The notes beneath the pieces are model-generated. The model ran no database searches. It was not told where the DNA came from and saw only the letters and a list, made by a program, of their open reading frames with translations. A program made the position numbers and the translations under genes. A stretch of 64,000 nucleotides of DNA from positions 752-64,751 of the forward strand of contig CAKPQS010000002.1 in NCBI GenBank assembly GCA_934179675.1, read 5' to 3'. This stretch comes from an uncultured Bacilli bacterium (GTDB taxonomy: Bacteria > Bacillota_I > Bacilli_A > RF39 > UBA660). Of the stretch, positions 1 through 38,366 are shown piece by piece (the first letter of the stretch is position 1; each line of letters begins with the position of its first letter).

Positions 1-658
1 TTCTAAAATAACAGTAAATTATATCGCTGAGGCATCAACACTAGTAGATAAAATGATTGATACTAATTATATAGGTGGTGGTAGTAGTAGTAGTGAATCA
101 TCTAAAGGCAATGTTATAAAAGGAAATATAATTCCAGAATATTCAATTATAATAACAGGTAATGATGATATAAAATATGAATCTAATAATAGAGTAAAAG
201 GTACAAAAGTAACTTTAACATCTATATCAGGTAATAATTATGTAACATCATTTAAAATGAATGGAACTACCATAAATGGAAATGAATTTATAATGCCTGA
301 TAACGATGTAACAATAAGTGATATAGTAACAATATCTTGTAAAACAATTGAGTCTGCTCATAATCCATACCCTGATTCGCAAGATAATGTTATACTTGGT
401 GAACATACATTCGAAGGAGCAAAAGCTTTAACAGTCATACTAGATTATCAAACTGAAAGTGCATGGTGTGATTACTTCTTAATATATGATTCTTCTTCCT
501 CAACAACAGGTATAAACAATAATAAAAAATATGGTGGAAGTACTAGAACAAAAGAAACAATAACAATTAACTCTAACTATATCAAAATAACATTTACAAG
601 TGATAGTTATGATAACAACTTTTATGGCCTAAGAGCAATCGTAATCCCTAACTATTAA
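1..658 (+). CDS. 3' part of a DUF285-repeat surface protein paralog. The ORF is open to the window start and carries a ~200-aa C-terminal extension ending ...GLRAIVIPNY.
   Basis: No stop in frame from nt 2. Residues KITVNYIAEASTLVDKMI align with the C-terminus of the 2800-3924 protein (KITVNYTSSTSTLVDNMI), followed by an extra Ser/Gly/Asn-rich tail. Confidence 0.6.
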   Translation, partial: SKITVNYIAEASTLVDKMIDTNYIGGGSSSSESSKGNVIKGNIIPEYSIIITGNDDIKYESNNRVKGTKVTLTSISGNNYVTSFKMNGTTINGNEFIMPDNDVTISDIVTISCKTIESAHNPYPDSQDNVILGEHTFEGAKALTVILDYQTESAWCDYFLIYDSSSSTTGINNNKKYGGSTRTKETITINSNYIKITFTSDSYDNNFYGLRAIVIPNY

Positions 659-779
659 TATATTTAGAAACTATAATGAAATGAAATATTTTTATGCAGA
701 GATTATTGAAAGAGTAGTTAAAATAAAAACTGATATTTAGAATTATTTTCTGTTGAGTCTGTAAATAAATTTGTGTAAA

Positions 780-2150
780 GATAAAATCCTTTCTATGGTA
801 ATATAGAAATATAGAACCAAGGAAGGATTTTTGTATGAAGGAAAATAAAAATAATGAAGTTGTTAAATATTTATTAGAAAATTATGATATTAAAAATGCA
901 AATGATATTGCTTATGCATTAAAAGATATGTTTAAAGATACTATTAAAACTATGATGAATGCTGAATTTGATTCATCTATGGGTTATGAAAAAACGATAA
1001 TAAAGTAGAAAAATCAAACTATAGAAACGGTTATTCTTCTAAAAAGGTAAAAAGTCAATTTGGTGAATTTGAACTATCAGTACCAAGAGATAGAAATGCT
1101 GAATTTGAACCTCAAATTGTTCCTAAAAATAAAAGAGATATCTCTGGTATTGAAGAGAAAGTTATAAATCTTTATGGCAACGGTTTATCTACTAGAAAAA
1201 TAAGTGATTCTATCGAAGATATCTATGGAGTTCAACTATCTGCTACAATGATTAGCAATATAACAAATGCAATTTTAGAAGAGATAGAAGAATGGCAAAA
1301 AAGACCATTAAAAGAGGTATAACCAATTGTATTTATTGATGCTATACATTTTAATATTAAACAAGAAAATGTTATAGTTAAGAAAGCTGCTTATGTAATA
1401 CTAGGTGTTAATGCTGATGATTTTAAAGAAGTGCTTTGAATATGGAATGGAGAAAATGAGTCAGCTAGATATTGGTTAGGTACTTTAAACGAATTAAAGA
1501 ATCGTGGTGTTAAAGATATTTTAATTATATGTTCTGATGGATTAAAAGAAATAAATGAGGCAATCAAAGCAGTTTATCCAAAAGCTATGCAGCAAAGATG
1601 TATTGTTCATTTAATTAGAAATTCTGTTAAATTTGTTTCTTATAAAAATTTAAAAGAATTTTGTAATGATTTAAGAACTATATATAAATCAAATACTGAA
1701 AAGGAAGCAAGAGAAAATTTAGAAAAAGTAAAAAACAAATGGGGTTCTATTTATCCAACAAGTTTAAAAGTTTGGGAAGATAATTGTGAAGCAATTTGTA
1801 CATTATTTAACTATTCCAAGGAATTAAGAAAAATAATGTATACAACAAATGCGATAGAAAGTTTAAATCGTTCATATCGCAAATATACCAAAACAAAAGG
1901 AGTATTTACTAGTGATAATTCTTTAATGAAATGTTTGTTTTTAGCTACTAAAAATGTAGAAAAAAATGGACTACTAGATATCCTAATTGGGATATGATTT
2001 ATAATGAATTAAATATATTATATCCAGAACGATTAAATTGATCTTTGAAAATTATTAAATTTATGTTATTATTTAAGTAACAAAAAGAGATTGATACTAA
2101 TCAACTTTGAACATCTTTATTACCATGGATTGGTAACTTTACAAAAAGTT
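780..2150 (+). mobile_element. Degenerate IS256-family insertion sequence. Boundaries are approximate and no clean terminal inverted repeats were resolved.
   Basis: Contains an IS256/mutator-type transposase reading frame (GYEK...YRNGYSSK...PIVFIDAIHF...CIVHLIRNS...YTTNAIESLNR) broken by several lesions. Confidence 0.55.
837..2041 (+). pseudogene. IS256-family transposase pseudogene. Lesions: a -1 frameshift in an A-tract near 1000, TAA at 1319-1321 in place of the conserved Tyr of the IS256 ...EVYPIVFIDA... region, TGA at 1437-1439, and a frameshift near 1990.
   Basis: Three reading-frame segments each align collinearly to IS256 transposase; the last intact piece is ORF 1587-1997. Confidence 0.7.
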
Positions 2151-2253
2151 TTTTACACTCTCATATAGTATTTGTTGCCCGATATTTTTCTTCTTTTCTT
2201 CATTTAATTTGGTTATTCTTTTCATATTTGCTAAAAAGAGCGTAGTTGTCCCT

Positions 2254-2496
2254 TTATATTGTAATGTCTAGTTTTCCACAAGCATTAGCTTTATCATATC
2301 CATAACTTTTCTTTAGATCAGCATTTTTAGCTTCTAACATATATCTATTTGAATATAATTCTCTAAATTCATCAGTATTCATATAGTCCATTTGTTCAAT
2401 ATGTGTTTCATCTTTTATTTTTACATTAAATGTTTTTGCTTTAGCTCCCTCTTTATAACAACCATCTTTAAATGGACAATGCTTGCATTTTTTCAC
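2254..2496 (-). pseudogene. Fragment of an IS1182/IS5-like transposase (CxxC...C motif region), truncated at both ends.
   Basis: 80-aa ORF with a GTG start: CKHCPFKDGCYKEGAKAK...RYMLEAKNADLKKSYGYDKA resembles the Zn-knuckle and following region of IS1182-family transposases. There is no upstream continuation and it abuts the IS256 remnant. Confidence 0.3.
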
Positions 2497-2520
2497 ATCA
2501 AAAATTTTTAATTATTTTTG

Positions 2521-2551
2521 GTTAATCTATTGTTTTCAATTTAAAAAAATG
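2521..2551 (+). promoter_or_regulatory. Sigma-70-type promoter (TTGTTT-16-TGTATAAT) driving the leader ORF plus DUF285 gene.
   Basis: Hexamers with 16-nt spacing and a TG-adjacent -10, ~35 nt upstream of the leader ORF RBS (AGGATAAGGTG). Confidence 0.45.
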
Positions 2552-2584
2552 TATAATTGATATAGAAGGATAAGGTGTGTATAT

Positions 2585-2803
2585 ATGAATATTGTTGATA
2601 AGTCTATAAATAAAAATACATACATACATACATACATACATACATACATACATACATACATACATACATACATACATACATACATACATACATTACTAAA
2701 TAATAAAAAAATTAGTATTTTTGATAGTGATTTAATAGGAGTAGATTATATAGATTCTGGTCCTATTTTTAGTGTATTTAATTTATTGGGAGGAACAATA
2801 TGA
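2585..2803 (+). CDS. Leader ORF (72 aa) containing the tetranucleotide repeat, translated as (YIHT)n. Its stop codon overlaps the start of the downstream DUF285 gene (ATGA).
   Basis: ATG with RBS. The ORF reads through the (ATAC)19 tract and ends in TGA at 2801-2803, overlapping ATG 2800. The first 10 codons (MNIVDKSINK) are conserved in the second cassette copy at ~38010. Confidence 0.5.
   Translation: MNIVDKSINKNTYIHTYIHTYIHTYIHTYIHTYIHTLLNNKKISIFDSDLIGVDYIDSGPIFSVFNLLGGTI
2616..2691 (+). repeat. Perfect tetranucleotide repeat (ATAC)19 (equivalently (TACA)n) inside the leader ORF.
   Basis: 76 nt of uninterrupted ATAC units, counted directly. The paralogous leader at 38030-38045 has only ~1-2 units. 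Confidence 0.95.
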
Positions 2804-3924
2804 AGAAGAAAATTTTATTTTTATCAATATTATGTTTATTATTTGTAACATTAAGTTATACTTATTCATCATTTAATAATACTATTGTAGGTACTATAAC
2901 AGCTAATGTAAAAGATTGGGTATTTAAAGTAAGTGTAAATAATGGTACTATCAAAGATGGTGGATATAATTTACATTTAAGTGGTACTAGTGGATCATTT
3001 AACATTAATATTAATACTACTGGATCTAAAAGTGGAGCAGATTATACTATTGAATTAATAGGAGATAGTTCAATTAAGTTTTATACAGATAGTAGTTATA
3101 CTAAATTAATTAATAATAATATATATAGTGGATCTATAGATAGTAATACTAGTAGTAGTGTTACAATATATTATAAGTTTGATACTAATATTAATAGTGA
3201 TATTTTAATAAAAACTAAAGGTACTATAATGGAAATTGCAACGATGAAGAATGGGAATATTTTTTATCTTCGTAGTACTGAATTTTGGAATGCAGCATAT
3301 AGACCTTATATAAGAACGATTAATTTTGGTAATGATTTAAGTAATTTACCAAGTACTTGTACAGAAGAAAATTTATGTTGGGATATATCTGAAAGTCCAA
3401 CTCAAAAGAAGAAAGTGTATGGATATTTAGTTGATACTGGATTAAAAGATAGTACTGATAATACAGAATCATTATATAATTTATATATTGTAAGTGAAGC
3501 ACCGATATTTGCACCATCAAATTGTAGAGGATTATTTTCATTATCAACAATTGGACATAGTAAAGAAATATCAAATTTAATATCTATAAATTTTAATGAT
3601 AATTTTAATACCGCAAATGTAACATCTATGGAAAGTATGTTTTCTGACTGTTCATCCTTAACAAGTATAGATTTAAGTGGTTTTAATACTTCGAATGTAA
3701 CAAATATGGAAGAAATGTTTTTTTATTGTGAATCCTTAACAACAACAATAAATATAATGAGTACAAGTGTTACGAATTATTCAGAAATGTTTAGTGCTGC
3801 AGCAACAGCTAGTGGTGCTAAAATAACAGTGAACTATACATCATCAACAAGTACTTTAGTAGATAACATGATTGCAACTAAATCATCTAATAGCAATGTT
3901 ATAAAAGGAGTCCAAATAAATTAA
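2800..3924 (+). CDS. Secreted surface protein with C-terminal DUF285-type (Mycoplasma-like) leucine-rich repeats. It has an N-terminal signal peptide and may be phase-variable.
   Basis: Signal peptide MKKKILFLSILCLLFVTLSYTYSSF. C-terminal repeats of type MFSDCSSLTSIDLSGFNTSNVTNMEEMFFYCESL fit the DUF285 motif. Strong RBS GGGAGG 6 nt upstream. Confidence 0.75.
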   Translation: MKKKILFLSILCLLFVTLSYTYSSFNNTIVGTITANVKDWVFKVSVNNGTIKDGGYNLHLSGTSGSFNININTTGSKSGADYTIELIGDSSIKFYTDSSYTKLINNNIYSGSIDSNTSSSVTIYYKFDTNINSDILIKTKGTIMEIATMKNGNIFYLRSTEFWNAAYRPYIRTINFGNDLSNLPSTCTEENLCWDISESPTQKKKVYGYLVDTGLKDSTDNTESLYNLYIVSEAPIFAPSNCRGLFSLSTIGHSKEISNLISINFNDNFNTANVTSMESMFSDCSSLTSIDLSGFNTSNVTNMEEMFFYCESLTTTINIMSTSVTNYSEMFSAAATASGAKITVNYTSSTSTLVDNMIATKSSNSNVIKGVQIN

Positions 3925-3953
3925 ATATAATTTTAAAATAATATTAATATATA

Positions 3954-3980
3954 AATCAGGTTATTCCTGATTTTTATTTT
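3954..3980 (+). terminator. Rho-independent terminator (AATCAGG-ttatt-CCTGATT followed by a T-run).
   Basis: 7-bp stem, 5-nt loop and TTTTTATTTT tail downstream of the 2800-3924 CDS. Confidence 0.7.
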
Positions 3981-4058
3981 AAAAATAAATAAAAAAATAA
4001 AAAATTTAGTTTAAAAACAATAAAAATTTGGTATAATACTATAGAAGTTGGTGATATT

Positions 4059-6866
4059 ATGGATAAAATAATAATAAAAGGAGCAAGAGAAAATAATTTA
4101 AAAAATATTAATATTGAATTACCTAAAAATAAATTTATAGTAATGACAGGTGTATCAGGATCAGGGAAAAGTAGTTTAGCATTTGATACAATATTCGCCG
4201 AAGGAGAAAGAAGATATATAGAATCATTAAGTGCTTACGCAAGACAATTTTTAGGTGGATCAGAAAAACCAGATGTTGATAGTATAGAAGGATTAAGTCC
4301 CGCTATTGCGATCGATCAAAAAACAACCAATAAAAACCCAAGAAGTACAGTAGGAACAGTAACAGAAATATACGATTATTTAAGACTACTATATGCAAGA
4401 GTAGGAGTACCATATTGTCCAGTACACAATAAACCTATAACAAGCCAAAGTATAGAAGAAATGACAAACCAAATAATGAATCTAGAAGAAAATAGTAAAA
4501 TAAGAGTCTTAAGTCCTATTGTATATGGAGAAAAAGGAACTCAAGCAGATATATTTGACAAATTAAGAAAAGAAGGATACGTAAGAGTTGTTATAGATGA
4601 TGAAGATTATGATCTAAGCGAAAATATTGAATTAGATAAAAATAAAAAACATAATATTTTTGTTGTAGTAGATAGATTAATAATCAAAGATGGTATTAGA
4701 ACAAGACTATACGAATCAATTGAAAACGCAAGCAAATTAAGTAAAGGTAAAGTATGTATTGATTATATAGGTCATGAAATGATTGTAATGAGTGAAGCAT
4801 ATGCATGCCCAGACTGCGATTTTAGCCTACCAGAACTAGAACCAAGAATGTTTAGCTTTAATGCTCCTTATGGATCATGCCCTGAATGTAAAGGATTAGG
4901 CATAAAACAAAAAATTGATCCAGATTTAATAGTATCTGACTATAATTTAAGTATATATGAAGGCGCAATTATACCACTCAATAGCGAAGATTCTAATATC
5001 TTTTTTACTCAATTAGAAGCAACAGCTAAAAAATATAATATTGATTTAAACAAAAAATTAAAAGACCTAAAAAAAAGTGAATTAGATATTATATTTTATG
5101 GATCAAAAGATGAAATAGATGTTAAATACGTTGCTAAAAATGGTAATGTAAGATATGCCAAAGAAAAATATGAAGGTATAATTACCAATTTAGAAAGAAG
5201 ATACATTGAAACAAAAAGTGATTGGATAAGAAATTGGATTGAACAATTTATGACAGAATTAGAATGCCCTAAATGTCATGGAGCAAGATTAGATGATTCA
5301 GTACTATCAGTAAAAATAAACAAAAAAAACATCTATGAATTAACATGTTTAAGTATCGAAGAATTAAAAACATTTTTAGAAAATTTGAAATTGAGTAAAG
5401 AAAAAGAAGAAATAGCAAAACTCCTAATAAAAGAAATATTATCAAGATTAACATTTTTAGTAAATGTAGGGCTAGACTATTTAACATTAGCACGAAGTGC
5501 CTATACATTATCTGGCGGTGAAGCCCAAAGAATACGTTTAGCAACACAAATAGGATCAAGATTAACAGGCGTATTATATGTACTTGATGAACCATCAATA
5601 GGACTTCATCAAAGAGATAACCAAAGATTAATAAACAGTATGCTAGAAATGCGTGATTTAGGAAATACCTTAATAGTAGTTGAACATGATACAGATACAA
5701 TGCTAGCAGCTGACTATTTAGTAGACGTTGGACCTGGAGCAGGAATTCATGGTGGCAATATAGTAGCACAAGGAACACCAAAAGAAGTAATGCAAAATGA
5801 AAATAGTATAACAGGTGCATATTTAAGTGGCAAAAGAAAAATAGAAGTTCCAAAAACAAGAAGAAAAGGCAATGGATTATATTTAGAAATAAAAGGTGCC
5901 AGCGAAAATAATTTAAAAAATATTAATGTAAAATTCCCATTAGGTAAATTTATATGTATAACAGGAGTATCTGGTTCAGGTAAAAGTTCGCTTATCAATG
6001 AAATATTATATAAAGCTGTATATAGTAATATTTATAAATCTAAAATAAAACCAGGAAAATTCAAAAAAATACTAGGACTTGAAAATATTGATAAAGTAAT
6101 TGATATATCACAAGCACCAATAGGTAGAACACCACGAAGTAACCCAGCAACCTATACAGGTGTATTTGATGATATTAGAGACGTATTTACAGAAACAAAA
6201 GAAGCTAAAATAAGAGGATACGATAAAGGTAGATTTTCATTTAATGTAAAAGGTGGAAGATGTGAAGCATGTTGGGGAGATGGTGTCAAAAAAATAGAAA
6301 TGCACTTTTTACCAGATGTATATGTTCCATGTGAAGTATGTGGAGGAACAAGATATAATAGAGAAACACTTGAAATAAAATATAAAGGAAAATCAATATA
6401 TGATGTTCTGGAAATGAGAGTTGAAGAAGCAATCGAATTTTTTGAAAATATACCAAAAGTAAGAAATAAACTTCAAATGTTATCAGATGTAGGATTATCT
6501 TATGTAAAATTAGGACAAAGTGCTCCAACATTATCAGGAGGAGAAGCAGGAAGAGTTAAACTTGCTAAAGAACTTCAAAAAAAAGCAACTGGTAAAAGTT
6601 TATTTATACTAGATGAACCAACAACTGGTTTACATTCAGAAGATATTAAAAAATTATTAGTAATTCTAAACAGAATAGTTGATAATGGTGATACAGTTAT
6701 TGTAATTGAACATAATTTAGATGTTATTAAAGTAGCTGATCATATAATTGATTTAGGCCCAGAAGGTGGCGAAAAAGGAGGCAACATAATTGCCCAGGGA
6801 ACACCAGAAGAAGTAGCAAAAATAAAAGGAAGCTATACAGGTGAGTTTTTAAAGAAATATTTATAA
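4059..6866 (+). CDS. uvrA: Excinuclease ABC subunit A.
   Basis: 935 aa with two ABC ATPase modules (GVSGSGKSSL twice), Zn-finger Cys clusters and LSGGEAQRIRLA signatures. An extended -10 (TGGTATAAT) lies upstream. Confidence 0.95.
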   Translation: MDKIIIKGARENNLKNINIELPKNKFIVMTGVSGSGKSSLAFDTIFAEGERRYIESLSAYARQFLGGSEKPDVDSIEGLSPAIAIDQKTTNKNPRSTVGTVTEIYDYLRLLYARVGVPYCPVHNKPITSQSIEEMTNQIMNLEENSKIRVLSPIVYGEKGTQADIFDKLRKEGYVRVVIDDEDYDLSENIELDKNKKHNIFVVVDRLIIKDGIRTRLYESIENASKLSKGKVCIDYIGHEMIVMSEAYACPDCDFSLPELEPRMFSFNAPYGSCPECKGLGIKQKIDPDLIVSDYNLSIYEGAIIPLNSEDSNIFFTQLEATAKKYNIDLNKKLKDLKKSELDIIFYGSKDEIDVKYVAKNGNVRYAKEKYEGIITNLERRYIETKSDWIRNWIEQFMTELECPKCHGARLDDSVLSVKINKKNIYELTCLSIEELKTFLENLKLSKEKEEIAKLLIKEILSRLTFLVNVGLDYLTLARSAYTLSGGEAQRIRLATQIGSRLTGVLYVLDEPSIGLHQRDNQRLINSMLEMRDLGNTLIVVEHDTDTMLAADYLVDVGPGAGIHGGNIVAQGTPKEVMQNENSITGAYLSGKRKIEVPKTRRKGNGLYLEIKGASENNLKNINVKFPLGKFICITGVSGSGKSSLINEILYKAVYSNIYKSKIKPGKFKKILGLENIDKVIDISQAPIGRTPRSNPATYTGVFDDIRDVFTETKEAKIRGYDKGRFSFNVKGGRCEACWGDGVKKIEMHFLPDVYVPCEVCGGTRYNRETLEIKYKGKSIYDVLEMRVEEAIEFFENIPKVRNKLQMLSDVGLSYVKLGQSAPTLSGGEAGRVKLAKELQKKATGKSLFILDEPTTGLHSEDIKKLLVILNRIVDNGDTVIVIEHNLDVIKVADHIIDLGPEGGEKGGNIIAQGTPEEVAKIKGSYTGEFLKKYL

Positions 6867-6949: not shown

Positions 6950-6984
6950 GTACAAAAATGATATAATTTTAGAAGGAGAAAAAT

Positions 6985-9036
6985 ATGGTATTAATAATTG
7001 CAGAAAAACCAAGCCTTGCAAGAAATATAGTAGCAGGAATAGGTGAAATGAAAAAATTAAATGGTTATTTTGAAGGATGTGGATATATAGTATCTTGGGC
7101 ATATGGACATCTTTTTTCATTATGCGATATAGAAGATTATCTAGAAGATAAAAATCCTAAATGGCGATTAGACAATATACCATGTTTTCCACAACAATTT
7201 AAATTTAAATTAAAAAACGATGATTCAGGAATAACTAAACAATTTAATTTAATAAAAACACTATGTAATAGAACTGATGTTGAAAAAATAGTAAATGCTG
7301 GAGATGCTGATAGAGAAGGCGAAATAATAATAAGATTATGCGTAAATAATGCCCTAAAAGAAACTAAACCATTCTATAGATTATGGCTTCCTGATCAAAC
7401 ACCAGAAACAGTAAAAAAAGCATTATCTGAAATGAAAAATGAAACATTCTATAACAATTTAGCAAACGAAGGATTTGCACGAACATATATTGACTGGCTA
7501 TATGGTGTTAATTTAACAAGATTTGCGACCTTAAAAACAGGAACACTATTAAGAGTAGGAAGAGTAATAGTACCAATAGTAAAAGCAATATATGATAGAG
7601 ATACACAAATAAAAAATTTTATACCAGATATATATTATGGTATTTCCAGTAAAGAAGAAACAAATGGTGAAATTGTAGAATTAAATAGTAAAATAAAATT
7701 TAATAAAAATGAAAAAGAAAAAGCAATAAATTATTGTAAAGAATATAACAATTTAGAAGCAATAGTAGAAGATAAAAAACAAAAAAAAGATACCCTTTCA
7801 CCAGGTAAACTATATTCATTATCAAAACTACAAAATGTCCTTGGAAAAAAATATAAAATGTCAATGGATAAAAGTTTAAGTATTGTTCAAAAACTATATG
7901 AAGAAGGATACTTAACATACCCAAGAACCAATAGTGAGTATCTAGCAACCGCTGAAATGGATAAATTTAAACAAATAATTAACAATATAAAAAAAATGGG
8001 ATATAGTGTAGAATTTAAAAATAAAAAAACAATTTTTGATGATTCAAAAATAGAATCACATTCAGCATTAACACCAACATATAAAATACCTAAAAAAGGT
8101 GTCTTAAAAGATGAAGAATTGACAGTATATTTAACCGTATTTAAAAGATTTTTAGCAGTCTTTTGTAGTGAAGATGCTATTGTTAATAAATGTGAAATAG
8201 TAGTTAATTTAGGAAATAAAGAAAAATTTACTTTAAAAGGATCAACAATATTAGAACAAGGTTGGACAAAGTATGATGATTATACAACCAAAGATAAAAT
8301 ATTACCAAATTTAAATATAGGCGATAAAGTAAATATCAATTTTAAAGAAATTGAAAAAGAAACAACACCACCAAAACATTATACAATTGAAACATTAAAT
8401 AATTATCTTAAAAATCCATTTAAAGATGAAAAAGCAAATAATGATGATGATACTGAAGACTATAAAGCAATATTTGAAGGATTAGAATTAGGAACAGAAG
8501 CAACAAGAACAGGAATTATTGATAATGCTAAAAAAAGTGGATATATTGAATTAAAAAAAGATACATACTATATTTTACCAAAAGGAGAATATTTAATAGA
8601 ATCATTAAAATCAATGAATATATCAATGGATAAATATAAAACAAGTGAATTAGGAAAAGCTTTAAAAAAAGTTTATCGTGAAGAAATAGAAATAAAAGAT
8701 GCTGTTAATTTAGCATGTAATGAAATAAAAGAAATATTTGATTCTAAAAATAAAATAGATGATAATGGTTTTTTTGGTGATATAGTTGGAAAATGTCCAT
8801 TATGTGGTGAAGATGTTATAAAAAATAGATATGGATTTGGATGTCGAAACTATGTTAATTGTTCGTTTAAAATAAACGGAACAATATGTAAAAAAATAAT
8901 ATCTTTAGAAAATGCTAAAACATTGCTAGAAAATGGTAAAACAAATAAAATAACAGGTTTTATATCTAAAAATGGTAAATCATTTGATGCCTATTTAAAA
9001 TTAGATGAAAATAAAAAAATAGTATTTGAATTTTAA
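6985..9036 (+). CDS. topB: DNA topoisomerase III (type IA).
   Basis: Toprim N-terminus (IIAEKPSLARNI...SWAYGHLF), topoisomerase IA core, C-terminal Zn ribbon CPLCGEDV...GCRNY. Confidence 0.85.
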   Translation: MVLIIAEKPSLARNIVAGIGEMKKLNGYFEGCGYIVSWAYGHLFSLCDIEDYLEDKNPKWRLDNIPCFPQQFKFKLKNDDSGITKQFNLIKTLCNRTDVEKIVNAGDADREGEIIIRLCVNNALKETKPFYRLWLPDQTPETVKKALSEMKNETFYNNLANEGFARTYIDWLYGVNLTRFATLKTGTLLRVGRVIVPIVKAIYDRDTQIKNFIPDIYYGISSKEETNGEIVELNSKIKFNKNEKEKAINYCKEYNNLEAIVEDKKQKKDTLSPGKLYSLSKLQNVLGKKYKMSMDKSLSIVQKLYEEGYLTYPRTNSEYLATAEMDKFKQIINNIKKMGYSVEFKNKKTIFDDSKIESHSALTPTYKIPKKGVLKDEELTVYLTVFKRFLAVFCSEDAIVNKCEIVVNLGNKEKFTLKGSTILEQGWTKYDDYTTKDKILPNLNIGDKVNINFKEIEKETTPPKHYTIETLNNYLKNPFKDEKANNDDDTEDYKAIFEGLELGTEATRTGIIDNAKKSGYIELKKDTYYILPKGEYLIESLKSMNISMDKYKTSELGKALKKVYREEIEIKDAVNLACNEIKEIFDSKNKIDDNGFFGDIVGKCPLCGEDVIKNRYGFGCRNYVNCSFKINGTICKKIISLENAKTLLENGKTNKITGFISKNGKSFDAYLKLDENKKIVFEF

Positions 9037-9049
9037 TACTATACAAATT

Positions 9050-9059
9050 AAAAAAAAAA
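9050..9059 (+). repeat. Homopolymeric A10 tract in the promoter region of the DUF285 paralog at 9077.
   Basis: Ten consecutive A residues, 3 nt upstream of TATATAAT and ~17 nt upstream of the RBS. Confidence 0.9.
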
Positions 9060-9076
9060 TTATATAATTATAATAG

Positions 9077-10081
9077 GTGAAAAGAATGAATAAGAATGTA
9101 AGAACATTAATATTAATTGGGGCTATATTAATAGGAATAGGAATAATATTTTGTATCAAAAATAAATTGATTGATAAAAATATAGAAATACGTGTTTTAA
9201 ATAATTCTACAACATATAAAAATAATAAAACAGTTGCTAATAAAGGTAAAAAAGGTAAAATAAATATCAAAATGAATGTTGATAAAGCAGGCTTTTATAG
9301 AATAGATTTTATCAATTTACAAGAAGGCTTTAATATATATTCAGATAGTGAATATAATAATAAAATTTCATCAATTTATAAAATATATAATGATTCTATA
9401 AGAGATGAATTTTCTGTTTATTATAAAAATGATGGAGATAAATATAATTGCGATATTAAAATAGAAGTTAAATATTCTGAAAATGTTGAAACTATGACTA
9501 ATTTAGCACATACAAAAGAATATATTTGGAGTGACGAATATAGACCTTATATAGAAAGTATTACATTTGAAAAAAATAATGATTTTATATGTGAAGATTT
9601 ATGTTTTGATATATCAAATAAAATAGGTAAAGTATATGCAAAATTAATAAAAAAAGAAAATAATTATGATTTAAAAATAATATCTGATACAGAAATATAT
9701 TTACCAATTGATTCATCTTATTTATTCAGTGATTTTACAAATTTAAAAAATATTGAATTTTCTAATATAAACACTAATTATCTTGAAAATGTAAGTTATA
9801 TGTTTGCACAAGATCCTAAACTTGAAAAATTAGATTTATCCATTTTTAATACATTAAAAATAAAAAATATGGATTATATGTTTATGAATTCATCAATGCT
9901 AAAAGAAATAGATTTAAGTACCTTTACATTTGATGATAAAACTACAGATAATTTATTTATGAATATTAAAGAAGATTCAATAATATATGTAAAATCATCA
10001 GTTGAACAAGCTTGGATATTTGGACCAAATAATACAAATAGGCCTCAAAGTTGGAAAGCTAGAAATGTTTTAATTAAGTAG
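9077..10081 (+). CDS. Membrane-anchored DUF285-repeat surface protein, a paralog of the 2800-3924 protein.
   Basis: N-terminal TM/signal anchor (LILIGAILIGIGIIFCI). Shares the central motif EYRPYIESITF / CFDISNKIGKVYAKL with YRPYIRTINF / CWDIS..KVYGYL of the first copy. C-terminal repeats: SNINTNYLENVSYMF...LDLSIFNTLKIKNMDYMF...IDLSTF. Confidence 0.7.
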   Translation: MKRMNKNVRTLILIGAILIGIGIIFCIKNKLIDKNIEIRVLNNSTTYKNNKTVANKGKKGKINIKMNVDKAGFYRIDFINLQEGFNIYSDSEYNNKISSIYKIYNDSIRDEFSVYYKNDGDKYNCDIKIEVKYSENVETMTNLAHTKEYIWSDEYRPYIESITFEKNNDFICEDLCFDISNKIGKVYAKLIKKENNYDLKIISDTEIYLPIDSSYLFSDFTNLKNIEFSNINTNYLENVSYMFAQDPKLEKLDLSIFNTLKIKNMDYMFMNSSMLKEIDLSTFTFDDKTTDNLFMNIKEDSIIYVKSSVEQAWIFGPNNTNRPQSWKARNVLIK

Positions 10082-16540: not shown

Positions 16541-18998
<2,458 letters not shown>

Positions 18999-21989: not shown

Positions 21990-24071
21990 ATGAAAATAAA
22001 AGCTGAAAAAAAAGATTGGATAAAATTTATTGTTATATCAATTGCCTTATTTTATTTATCAACATTAATTGTTGAAAATTTAGCAAACTGGGCTAGTTAT
22101 GGAATAGTTGAACCATATATATGGCTATTTCCATACCATATTTATATGCCAGTTAGATTAATAGGAAGTATTTTACTTTTTATAGTATTAATGATATGGA
22201 TATTAACAAGTGTAAGTTCATTAATTTTTGATAAAGAAAAAGGAATAGGATTTGCTGTTAAGAAAAAGGAAAGCGATGGCTATTCTCATTGGGCAAAAGA
22301 AAAAGAAATTAAAGAACAATTAAAAATGGTTAAAGTAACTGATGAAAAAATGAAATATGGTGGTTTGCCTTTAATAAACAATGGCAAAGAAATATATGTT
22401 GATGATGGTGAATCCCATTCATTAATAATTGGTTCTACAGGTAGTGGTAAAACACAATATATGGTTTTACCAGCAGTTAAAATACTTGCTCGAAAAGGCG
22501 AATCAATGATTATAACCGATCCTAAAGGTGAAATATATGAAGAAACAGCAGAAATGCTAAAAGAAAAAGGTTATAATATTGTTTTATTAAATTTCCGTGA
22601 ACCGCAAAAAGGTAATTCATGGAATCCATTAAATTTGCCTTATTCATTATACAAAGAAGGAAACAAAGATAAAGCAATTGAATTATTAGACGATTTAGCA
22701 GCTAATATTTTGTATGATGAAAAAGCTCAAAATCAAGATCCATTTTGGGAAAAATCATCAGCTGATTATTTTTCTGGTTTAGCACTAGGTTTATTTGATG
22801 ATGCATCACCAGATGAAATAAATTTAAACAGTATTAACTTAATGAGTACAATAGGTGAAGAAAGATGTGGAGCTTCAACATACATTAAAGAATATTTTTC
22901 AACAAAAGATGCAGCTAGTAGTGCTTATGTAAATGCAAGTAGTGTTTTAATGGCACCATCAGAAACAAAAGGTGGTATTCTTGCTGTATTTAAACAAAAA
23001 GTAAAATTATTTACATCAAGAGAAGTATTATCAGAAATGCTTGCTCATAATGACTTTGATATGAAAGATATTGGAAGACAAAAAACAGCAGTATTTATAG
23101 TTATACAAGATGAAAAGAAAACATATCATTCATTAGTTACAATATTTATAAAACAATGTTATGAAACATTAATTGATGTAGCTCAAGAATGTGGTGGGAA
23201 ATTACCATATAGAACAAATTTTATATTGGATGAATTCGCTAATATGCCTCCATTAAAAGATGTTACAACAATGGTAACAGCAGCTAGAAGTCGTTTAATA
23301 AGATTTAACTTTATTATCCAAAACTTTGCTCAATTAAATCAAATATATGGTAAAGAACAAGCTGATACAATAAAAGGTAACTGTGGTAATATTATTTATT
23401 TAATAAGTACTGAAGTTGCAGCCCTAGAAGAAATAAGTAAATTATGTGGTGAAAAGAAATCAAAAGAAAAAGATAAAACAGCATCAACACCATTAATTAC
23501 TGTAAGTGATTTACAAAGATTAAAACAAGGCGAAACTATTATTTTAAGAACAAGGCAGTGGCCATTTAAAACTAAATTAGTCATGAACTGGAAAATAGAT
23601 TGGGGTAAAAAATATGATAAAGCAACATACCCAACTCGTGAAAAATTAAGTATTCCTATGTTTGATATAAAAGAATTTGTTGATAAAATTAAAGCTGAAA
23701 AATTTCAAAACATGGTAGGAAATATGAATCAACAACCTGCATTTCCATTCGGTGGTGCTAATCCATTTGGTGGTAATAATCCATTTGGTGAAAACTTTGG
23801 AAATAATAATTCATTTACTAATAATCAAGGTGCTGGTATTGATTTAGATGAAGTAGTTAAAAGAATCGATGCTAAAATAGCTGAATTAGAAGCTGAAGAA
23901 ACACTAGAAAAAGAAAAAGATTGGTCTTATGATGATAACAATGAAGTAAAAGAAATTAGTATGCCAGAGGAAATACCAGAGGAAACTAATATTTCTGAAG
24001 AACCTAAAAAGACAAGAGATGAAGTTACAGATGATGAGTTCTTTGATGATTTTTGGAGCGATGGAGAATAA
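21990..24071 (+). CDS. VirD4/TraG-family type IV coupling protein homolog with no adjacent relaxase or VirB4. It has an N-terminal 2-TM anchor and a C-terminal low-complexity tail.
   Basis: Two N-terminal TMs, Walker A GSTGSGKT, Walker B ILDEFANM, ~690 aa. Tail PFGGANPFGGNNPFGENFGNNNSF followed by an acidic stretch. Confidence 0.6.
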   Translation: MKIKAEKKDWIKFIVISIALFYLSTLIVENLANWASYGIVEPYIWLFPYHIYMPVRLIGSILLFIVLMIWILTSVSSLIFDKEKGIGFAVKKKESDGYSHWAKEKEIKEQLKMVKVTDEKMKYGGLPLINNGKEIYVDDGESHSLIIGSTGSGKTQYMVLPAVKILARKGESMIITDPKGEIYEETAEMLKEKGYNIVLLNFREPQKGNSWNPLNLPYSLYKEGNKDKAIELLDDLAANILYDEKAQNQDPFWEKSSADYFSGLALGLFDDASPDEINLNSINLMSTIGEERCGASTYIKEYFSTKDAASSAYVNASSVLMAPSETKGGILAVFKQKVKLFTSREVLSEMLAHNDFDMKDIGRQKTAVFIVIQDEKKTYHSLVTIFIKQCYETLIDVAQECGGKLPYRTNFILDEFANMPPLKDVTTMVTAARSRLIRFNFIIQNFAQLNQIYGKEQADTIKGNCGNIIYLISTEVAALEEISKLCGEKKSKEKDKTASTPLITVSDLQRLKQGETIILRTRQWPFKTKLVMNWKIDWGKKYDKATYPTREKLSIPMFDIKEFVDKIKAEKFQNMVGNMNQQPAFPFGGANPFGGNNPFGENFGNNNSFTNNQGAGIDLDEVVKRIDAKIAELEAEETLEKEKDWSYDDNNEVKEISMPEEIPEETNISEEPKKTRDEVTDDEFFDDFWSDGE

Positions 24072-37909: not shown

Positions 37910-37991
37910 GGTATAGGAAACTATACTTTTTTTAATTAATTTTGATTTATAATTGCATAATAATGTTGATTGTGATAAGACATAAGTATAA

Positions 37992-38153
37992 GAATGGTAA
38001 GGTGTGTGTATATGAATATTGTTGATAAGTCTATAAATAAAGATGCATACTAAATAATAAAAAGATTAGTATTTTTAATAATGATTTAATAGGAGCAGAT
38101 TATATAGATTCTGTTCCTATTTTTAGTGTATTCAATTTATTAGGAGGAAGTAT
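37992..38153 (+). repeat. Second copy of the DUF285-gene 5' cassette (promoter, leader ORF start, RBS), ~90% identical to 2568-2799 but with the ATAC tract collapsed to ~1-2 units.
   Basis: Direct alignment: ...GGTGTGTGTATATGAATATTGTTGATAAGTCTATAAATAAAGATGCATACTAAATAATAAAAAGATTAGTATTTTTAATAATGATTTAATAGGAGCAGATTATATAGATTCTG... versus the copy at 2570. Confidence 0.85.
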
Positions 38154-38366
38154 ATGAAGAAGAAAGTTTTGTTTTTATCAATATTATGTTTATTATTTGT
38201 AACATTAAGTTATATTTATTCGTCATTTACGGCTACAATAGCTATAAACAATAATAAAAAATATGGTGGATTAAGTTATAGTGGATATAGTGAGTATTCA
38301 AGAACATCAGAAACTATAACTATTACTAGCAATTACATAAAAATAACATTTACAAGTGATAGTTGA
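38154..38366 (+). pseudogene. Chimeric or truncated DUF285-family gene remnant: signal peptide of the 2800-type gene joined to a tail related to the C-terminal extension of the 1-658 paralog.
   Basis: MKKKVLFLSILCLLFVTLSYIYSSF... then INNNKKYGG...ETITITSNYIKITFTSDS*, compared with INNNKKYGGSTRTKETITINSNYIKITFTSDSYDNNFYGLRAIVIPNY* at 545-658. Terminator-like hairpin at 38388-38412. Confidence 0.6.

Follow-up and report, generated by a model that had tools for sequence, protein, structure and literature searches.

Repeat-driven phase variation is textbook biology for pathogens and mycoplasmas. In Haemophilus influenzae, genes controlled by tetranucleotides include lic1A with (CAAT)n, lgtC with (GACA)n, hgp with (CCAA)n and mod with (AGTC)n. 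Neisseria nadA carries an upstream (TAAA)n tract that works through regulator phasing and Mycoplasma gallisepticum vlhA a (GAA)n tract, while the vlp genes of Mycoplasma hyorhinis combine poly-A in the promoter spacer with in-frame coding repeats and the vsa locus of Mycoplasma pulmonis uses site-specific inversion. The present analysis concerns bases 1-3924 of a 64 kb stretch of contig CAKPQS010000002.1 (the whole stretch is referred to below as the window), in which a perfect ATAC repeat lies within a small upstream open reading frame (ORF), in a leader cassette that precedes a gene for a predicted secreted BspA-like (PARCEL/DUF285) protein.

PARCEL denotes the same motif as DUF285 and TIGR02167 (PMC2996958). 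In Mycoplasma capricolum, some PARCEL lipoprotein genes bear homopolymer or dinucleotide tracts in their 5' flanks and have been termed 'modular contingency loci' (PMC2996958). The present locus resembles those of M. capricolum and M. mycoides (Vmc/Vmm type; Roske et al. 2010, PMC2996958; Wise et al. 2006 cited there) in the protein repeat family and in having a portable 5' module, composed of a variable repeat and a conserved signal sequence, on many surface-protein bodies, and in both settings combinatorial variation would be expected. However, the M. capricolum tracts, which belong to lipoprotein genes of wall-less cells, have units of one or two nucleotides and lie in the 5' flank or promoter, whereas here a tetranucleotide lies ~107 nt before the start in a leader that is translated or transcribed, the 374-aa product shows no obvious lipobox, and the host makes peptidoglycan and probably spores. 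Of the 28 BspA-like genes in Candidatus M. girerdii, eight carry dinucleotide repeats whose length varies in metagenomic reads (PMC5476646). This mycoplasma likewise is an uncultured, host-associated organism with a large BspA-like family, but its repeats lie within or near ORFs and cause truncation, and heterogeneity was measured there at the level of reads, whereas only consensus contigs are compared here. In H. influenzae hmw1A, a transcribed 7-nt repeat in the 5' untranslated region (UTR) controls expression via a hairpin processed by RNase III (PMC12721329). No comparable hairpin was found at the present locus. Shared with hmw1A/hmw2A and nadA is a repeat upstream of a surface-protein gene, transcribed or promoter-proximal, the length effect being theirs; the frame-preserving features described below have no counterpart in hmw1A or nadA. 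The closest analogues appear to be the PARCEL contingency loci of M. capricolum, the BspA-like genes of Candidatus M. girerdii and the Haemophilus tetranucleotide loci. The kind of system is known; what is new is the repeat unit, its location in an upstream ORF whose stop overlaps the main start codon, and the host.

The unit in question comprises the following features.

2530-2557, + strand: candidate promoter P1, TTGTTT-16-TGTATAAT, as read from the sequence
2585-2803, + strand: upstream ORF of 72 aa, from ORF reading and from gene callers in other loci
2616-2693, + strand: perfect (ATAC)x19.5 tetranucleotide repeat (100% matches, score 156)
2694-2799, + strand: conserved leader from the repeat to the main start, from cassette comparison
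2800-3924, + strand: complete 374-aa PARCEL/DUF285 (BspA-like) gene, from profile matches and an AlphaFold2 (AF2) model
3953-3973, + strand: terminator-like hairpin closing the cassette-plus-gene unit, from a sequence scan

The (ATAC)19.5 tract is perfect over 78 nt and is the sole such repeat in 64 kb, where none would be expected by chance. A first-pass annotation of this DNA had recognised the leader cassette, which is real, but had made no mention of the repeat, the most informative feature of the region. The reading that we favour, at a probability of about 0.6, is that bases 1-3924 form an expression site in which a tetranucleotide contingency cassette sits on a diversifying, multi-copy family of secreted BspA-like proteins. 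Slipped-strand mispairing would alter the tract in 4-nt steps and thereby move the upstream ORF from one reading frame to another. One of the three would let ribosomes traverse the leader and terminate on the main start (ATGA), giving coupling or protection and the ON state; in the other two they would stop at a TAA just past the tract, ~100 nt upstream of the main start, with expression OFF or low. Recombination inside the cassette would swap promoter heads and gene bodies and yield tandem copies and deletion remnants, and the pieces of IS256 and IS1182 insertion sequences (IS) nearby would be decayed insertions between tandem copies, with no role in the switch. Both the switching itself and the upstream-ORF read-out are what we infer from sequence comparison. 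Possible, but more tentative, is the specific claim that the tract is read out via an upstream ORF ending on the start codon of the surface gene, the cassette serving many BspA-like genes of an uncultured human-gut commensal, walled and probably spore-forming, as a portable module that recombines. If so, slippage in a leader ORF, and not in the gene or promoter, would toggle expression by translational coupling or leader protection. No description of such a read-out for a contingency locus was found in the literature searched. As in the Haemophilus genes, a perfect tetranucleotide tract of strain-varying length lies just after an ATG, with a three-state frame logic. There, however, the tract is inside the regulated gene, whereas here it is in a separate upstream ORF whose stop overlaps the regulated start, and therefore any effect must act via coupling, mRNA protection or leader length.

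In those members of the close subfamily that have it, the cassette is ~300 bp long and consists, in order, of an extended -10 promoter, a Shine-Dalgarno sequence (SD), the upstream ORF with (ATAC)n, a leader of 108 nt, a second SD and the main ATG, which is followed by a conserved signal peptide and N-terminal domain. The extended -10 TGTATAAT (2550-2557) recurs as the same block ahead of the cassette in loci L002, L089, L094, L005 and L111 (L-numbers denote comparison loci, which are consensus contigs from other metagenomes). In L005 the promoter reads TTGTCA-16-TGTATAAT and in L111 TTGATT-17-TGTATAAT, directly after a terminator; P1 of the window has a weak -35 and scored under the threshold of the consensus scan. 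An SD-like GAAGGA/AAGGTG at 2565-2577 precedes the upstream ATG at 2585, and the main SD, GGGAGGA (2788-2794), lies 7 nt from its ATG. The leader itself contains a small local hairpin (~2735-2766) and, 27 nt beyond the tract, another weak promoter-like site, TTGATA-17-GATTAT (2721-2749). Three folds of the leader RNA were no better than shuffled controls (z = -1.09, 0.22, -0.90), and a riboswitch, a thermometer or an hmw-like hairpin in the leader was dropped as an explanation on that ground. The lone match in an Rfam scan of bases 1-4100, mir-297, falls on the repeat itself and was discarded as a low-complexity artefact.

The window holds a second copy of the cassette, and the two (~2572-2880 and ~37990-38240) have roughly 92% identity to either side of the tract, as expected of the shared 5' cassette that had been proposed; in the 37990 copy the repeat is cut to about one unit (GATGCATAC). 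A scan of GTDB representative genomes with the exact cassette pattern gave 0 matches. Distant family members in other species have neither cassette nor repeat, and the cassette is therefore an invention specific to this lineage. In 'Firmicutes bacterium CAG:884' (L009, 4080-4400), a diverged copy of the leader stands ahead of a collapsed DUF285 remnant; its peptide frame is FIGAINYIDTGPFYSV, it has an indel of 3 nt, and CATAC is all that there is in place of a long repeat. It follows that the leader is older than the species split; the long repeat may not be.

The cassette is common to paralogs in at least six genomic contexts.

Next to uvrA: the window, L001-L003 and L086-L089
After htpG: L005
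After a prepilin peptidase gene: L090
Between a Mur ligase gene and an Asn/Asp/Lys-type tRNA synthetase gene: L091-L094
After murJ: L111-L117
Between mraY and engB, as a remnant: the window and L004

Among fully assembled contigs, long tracts (4.5 to 19.5 units) differ in length from one contig to the next. Those adjacent to uvrA have 19.5, 7.75, 6.5 (preceded by (AAAT)5) and 4.5 units (preceded by (AAAT)2), and two more, on contigs that end inside the tract, have at least 7 and at least 6.5 units; in a further uvrA-adjacent allele, L087, the cassette is cut back to its last ~75 nt, without any repeat and with the gene intact. Tracts of 8.5, 19.5, 9.75 and 7.5 units are found at other paralog loci, and an interrupted allele in L092 and L093. 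Five more contigs, retrieved via the exact UvrA protein, all start in the N-terminal part shared by the paralogs and gave no new repeat alleles. As controls, tracts of 3 units and 2 units at the murJ/gerA locus were identical in 5 and 8 independent samples, respectively, the DNA flanking the repeat is 96-99% identical between strains, and an A10 tract (9051-9060), 6 kb away and before the gene at 9086, is identical in 7 strains. The invariance of short tracts and of the A10 tract and the conserved flanks argue that the instability is real and length-dependent. Thus two features expected of a simple-sequence-repeat contingency locus were found, namely a long perfect repeat and a strain polymorphism that is length-dependent and set in conserved flanks. 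The tract lies outside the main ORF and outside any -35/-10 spacer, and inside the upstream ORF.

The repeat is stop-free in every frame, and the upstream ORF reads it as (TYIH)n. One frame runs on for 36 codons past the repeat to a TGA (2801-2803) overlapping the main start (ATGA), while the two other frames meet a TAA right after the repeat, at 2697-2699 and 2701-2703. Gene-finding programs also predict this small ORF, overlapping the main gene by 4 nt, in L003, L086, L090, L092-L094, L111-L113, L116 and L117, and the protein collection contains 25 clusters of the upstream-ORF peptide, which differ in their heads and have from zero to three or more TYIH units; a Pfam search assigned the peptide to no family, and looking up the members of these clusters contributed little more. 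A set of 14 cassettes, 10 of them distinct, was sampled by DNA or main protein, the small ORF not being a criterion. In every one (14/14) the read-through frame is open over the 36 codons, as against 1.4% of composition-matched shuffles, and the other two frames contain 5 and 8 stops over the same span. The only indels seen in these cassettes are two of 3 nt each, and a stop is created in none of 33 substitution states, for which the neutral chance is ~0.12. At the murJ locus, where the sole intact gene with a short, stable tract is found, the upstream ORF is in the read-through frame.

Several observations nevertheless weigh against a switch operated in this manner. The upstream-ORF peptide is unconserved, its ratio of synonymous to non-synonymous changes (6:27) being that expected under neutrality. 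If selection acts at all, it would thus be on ribosome passage through the leader and not on the product. The frame statistics are post hoc, drawn from closely related sequences and no more than suggestive. Among full long-tract cassettes, 3 of 8 (the window, L090 and L094) are in the read-through frame from the SD-proximal ATG, which is about the chance proportion; L005 is in that frame from a second ATG, L001 and L091 are out of frame, and in the haplotype of L002 and L089 the (AAAT)n run puts a TAA in every frame, so that the upstream ORF is blocked. A switch sampled in different states and plain chance would explain this mixture equally well. The frequency of frames in the protein collection was rejected as a test, because the collection has only ORFs long enough to be called and is biased towards read-through alleles. 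The strong SD of the main gene itself, together with the unremarkable structure of the leader, gives no visible sign of dependence on the upstream ORF. Moreover, the length differences seen from strain to strain demonstrate instability on an evolutionary time scale only, and the tracts of the window and of L090 (4817-4892), on independent contigs, are both exactly 78 nt, which may be the k-mer limit of the assembler, leaving the true length of these two, possibly greater, and their frame uncertain.

Some of the same observations would follow if the repeat tuned expression by its length and not by its frame, as a spacer in the 5' UTR or upstream of the weaker proximal promoter, the upstream ORF being incidental; the tracts of nadA, vlhA and hmw1A would be comparable cases. 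We regard this as unlikely, though it is the alternative to be taken most seriously. The promoter-like site 27 nt downstream of the tract would be suitably placed, the cassette of L090 has no upstream promoter of its own and directly follows another gene's stop, and graded control by a transcribed repeat has a precedent in hmw1A (PMC12721329). The strong SD of the main gene and the neutral evolution of the peptide are as this explanation would have them. On the other hand, about half of the cassettes have TTAATA as their proximal -35, neither a hairpin partner for the repeat nor any significant structure in the leader was found, and a 36-codon open frame that ends exactly on the main start and admits only 3-nt indels would be left unexplained.

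Less probable still is that the tract is a neutral microsatellite carried along by a recombining cassette that exists in many copies, and that the family varies only by duplication, gene conversion, deletion and IS-mediated decay. The observed frames are consistent with chance, the repeat-less allele of L087 keeps an intact gene, and distant members in other species do without both cassette and repeat. Neutrality, however, accords poorly with the background that bacteria in general very rarely have long tetranucleotide tracts, with a long perfect tetranucleotide tract that is the only one in 64 kb, with the finding that in the retrieved loci such tracts occur only before family genes and at the same site inside a unit of SD plus ATG, and with a purity over 78 nt that implies ongoing slippage. 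In addition, BspA/PARCEL surface proteins are a known target of repeat-based switching (PMC2996958, PMC5476646).

A contingency cassette of the kind favoured here would also recombine, and the breakpoints that the first-pass annotation had suggested looking for between paralogs and strains are present: homology starts at the tract or within the leader. L094 and L091 encode an identical 575-aa protein and share 99.3% identity starting at the very first base of the repeat, with unrelated DNA upstream; L005 joins L091 at the repeat; and L001 and L087 are 99% identical from mid-leader onward. On this evidence the cassette appears to double as a recombination joint, and such recombination would account for the tandem copies, for deletion remnants such as that at 38154 and for the orphan cassette of L111. 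The upstream neighbour of the uvrA-adjacent gene differs between strains, being the larger paralog with IS debris in the window, L002 and L089, rsmE with a 201-aa gene in L001, and gyrB with a 176-aa secreted protein in L087. Of the contigs over this gene, 9/14 end in the cassette or in the N-terminal region shared by the paralogs, which is what a multi-copy repeat would lead one to expect.

The orphan cassette (L111, 2440-2760; also L112-L118), the same in all 8 samples, lies downstream of an intact 557-aa family gene. It has the MKKEH head and two repeat units, its upstream ORF is 42 aa long, and the main gene is reduced to a truncated stub with a frameshift. A GerA/GerAC/spore-permease operon adjoins it on the opposite strand. 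In L091, direct repeats of ~600 nt (4195-4799 and 6957-7548; 93-94% identical) flank a cassette-plus-gene unit, and in L094 the gene is followed by an L091-type upstream region and another repeat tract, an arrangement which suggests tandem amplification units of ~2.75 kb.

The remaining features of the locus and the other family members in the window are as follows.

1-658, + strand: 3' end of a larger PARCEL/DUF285 paralog, namely the end of the repeat domain and a ~180-aa tail, from alignment to the 2800 protein and to P0041
754-2163, + strand: IS256-family element, full length with terminal inverted repeats, transposase inactivated, from domain and inverted-repeat searches
2142-2511, - strand: C-terminal fragment of an IS1182-family transposase (DDE_Tnp_1_6), frameshifted, from a domain match
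9077-10081, + strand: distant family member (32% identity) without cassette, likely start ATG 9086
37990-38366, + strand: second cassette copy (~92% identity to the first), then a 70-aa remnant (38154-38366)

The order previously given for the first 3924 bases (end of a larger paralog, IS256, an IS1182-like piece, leader cassette, complete 2800 gene) is correct, while the count of three further family members in the window falls to two, those at 9077/9086-10081 and 38154-38366. The 2800 protein matches PF03382 (DUF285) with 52.4 bits (cut-off 25) and TIGR02167 (PARCEL) with 56.9 bits (cut-off 30) over 2 repeat units; the larger paralog scores 115.9 bits over 4 units with TIGR02167, and a 565-aa partial copy in L002 matches the PARCEL repeat model at 3.7e-34. 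The AF2 model of the 374-aa protein (pLDDT 86) has an N-terminal hydrophobic helix, a predicted beta-sandwich (~aa 33-149) and a leucine-rich-repeat-like solenoid (~aa 171-372), and a fold search of the PDB with this model gave no match at E<1e-3. The N-terminus, which we took to resemble a SipW/TasA-type signal, was not confirmed as such by NCBIfam, no match of that type being found at E<=0.1.

At the left edge of the window, bases 2-658 are the end of an ORF whose full gene lies upstream. Its first 41 aa align with the C-terminus of the 2800 protein (51%) and are followed by ~180 extra aa. Over aa 1-393, the full-length larger paralog of another strain (P0041, 571 aa) and the 2800 protein have 76% identity, with 59/60 of the first 60 residues the same, and P0041 is 75% identical to the window tail; beyond the 374-aa protein it has one additional PARCEL unit of 26 residues and the tail. 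Pfam matched no family in the tail, which by eye (300-658) reads as a B-repeat followed by a CUB-like domain (..HNPYP..DYFLIYD..ITFTSD..YGL.A), and the same tail is the part that survives in the 38154 remnant. In that remnant (38154-38366) the signal peptide is joined directly to the C-terminal tail of the larger paralog, as in an apparent internal deletion product, and the same remnant is present between mraY and engB in L004. Homologues at E<=1e-5 number 1900, of which the best 120 span 40-99% identity and 314-654 aa, and one is named by NCBI a BspA-family leucine-rich-repeat surface protein. The sequences thus support a large, diversifying surface-protein family.

Three side observations concern family members or their neighbours. 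The A10 tract before the distant 9086 gene sits in the 17-nt spacer between TATACA and TATAAT (9041-9075), a vlp-type layout, and the corresponding tract in three related species is A8. The 176-aa secreted protein of L087 (5379-5909), directly upstream of the repeat-less allele, resembles by eye the N-terminal beta-sandwich region of the family and TasA/camelysin-type signals, and in Pfam gives a weak DUF11 hint only (E=0.039). The nine loci shown (L102-L110, of 12 contigs) that encode protein P0068 have a frameshift in the signal-peptide region, ~40 nt upstream of the called start; it falls at a T6 run (ATGAGGAAGAGAGTTTTGTTTTTTCAATAG) and is judged against L101 (2001-2045), where the homologue is in frame. 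Gene callers therefore pick an ATG inside the gene, and either a homopolymer switch stuck in one state or a fixed lesion could be the cause.

The host had been described as not a mollicute, and two Mur ligases, MraY and LysM are indeed encoded in the window. Contigs with the same cassette also carry GerA-type germination genes or a gene with a SpoIIIAH domain. From these peptidoglycan and sporulation-related genes, it follows that the host is a walled Firmicute that is probably spore-forming. The closest genomes are those of 'Firmicutes bacterium CAG:884' (89%) and of one metagenome-assembled genome (92%), and matches at 65-70% bear Bacilli/RF39 labels (Candidatus Coprovivens, PMC8035907) as well as Clostridia labels. 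The 374-aa protein, close variants and paralogs are found on human-gut metagenome contigs (Hadza and other cohorts). The G+C content of the window is ~25%, and nearly all its genes are on the + strand. Elsewhere in the window, a TraG/VirD4-type coupling protein (T4SS-DNA_transf, 3.7e-56) is encoded at 21990-24071 amid housekeeping genes and may mark an integrated conjugative element or its remnant. An in-frame 15-nt coding repeat (AATGTCAATGTGATG, 5.3 copies) occupies 16593-16684, near the start of the ORF at 16541-17164; a (AAAAAAGAA)3 tract comes just before it, and the two together encode a Cys-rich repetitive N-terminus.

The IS debris between the larger paralog and the cassette is much as first described. 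The IS256-type inverted repeats (754-783 and 2134-2163) are 30 nt long, 80% complementary and 1350 nt apart. The transposase between them (835-2038) is multiply disrupted, with frameshifts at ~1000 and ~1960 and in-frame stops at 1320 (TAA) and 1437 (TGA), and matches PF00872 (Transposase_mut) in pieces at 5e-33, 2.8e-48 and 7.2e-30. On the opposite strand, 2254-2496 matches DDE_Tnp_1_6 (PF13751) at 8e-10 over profile positions 31-105 of 125, with the N-terminal part absent and the assignment to IS1182 taken from the domain only; this fragment is truncated at the point where the cassette begins. The IS fragments are inactive and confined to the lineage of the window, L002, L089 and L094. L001 has none at the same locus. 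They are presumably strain-specific litter between two tandem copies, outside the mechanism and bystanders to any switch.

It had been proposed that the locus is a variable surface-antigen system comparable to vlp and vsa. The family itself stands, with a shared cassette, tandem copies, IS insertion, decay remnants and strain variation, but the vlp/vsa mechanism does not. That the locus works by a poly-A promoter-spacer switch or by site-specific inversion, with the IS graveyard as part of the machinery, is very improbable. Like vlp and vsa, the locus has clustered paralogs with a conserved 5' end and signal peptide that vary between strains, a shared 5' cassette and tandem copies in particular recalling those loci, and an A10 tract does occupy the promoter spacer of the distant 9086 gene. 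However, that tract is invariant in 7 strains, neither candidate promoter of the 2800 gene contains a homopolymer, and the variable element is the tetranucleotide repeat in the leader. Nor is there a sign of site-specific inversion at the 2800 gene: the two cassette copies of the window are direct repeats, both on the + strand, every retrieved cassette-bearing gene is oriented like the genes that flank it, and no recombinase was noticed adjoining the family, the window not having been searched systematically for one. The IS fragments, moreover, are missing from L001. Finally, it is scarcely credible that the length differences are artefacts of metagenome assembly, even though many contigs break in or beside the cassette and two independent ones stop at exactly 78 nt, since tracts of 18-40 nt, probably shorter than the assembler k-mers (k141 contig names suggest k=141), still differ between samples, the samples differ too in flanking (AAAT)n counts and in interruptions, and short tracts and the A10 tract come out the same in 5-8 samples and with different assemblers.

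No report of repeat-driven phase variation in this kind of uncultured gut Firmicute was found in the literature searched; such organisms have so far come to light through metagenomes only. If the contingency cassette proposed here is real, combinatorial surface variation in the style of mycoplasmas would be in use among gut Firmicutes. The cassette is a feature that can be counted in sequencing reads and explains the recurrent assembly breaks at these genes in this organism. It allows one to ask whether commensals vary their surfaces stochastically within the host, at what rate, and whether such variation is linked to pressure from immunoglobulin A (IgA) or phage. Should the read-out through the upstream ORF also prove true, it would constitute a further way for a repeat to control a gene.

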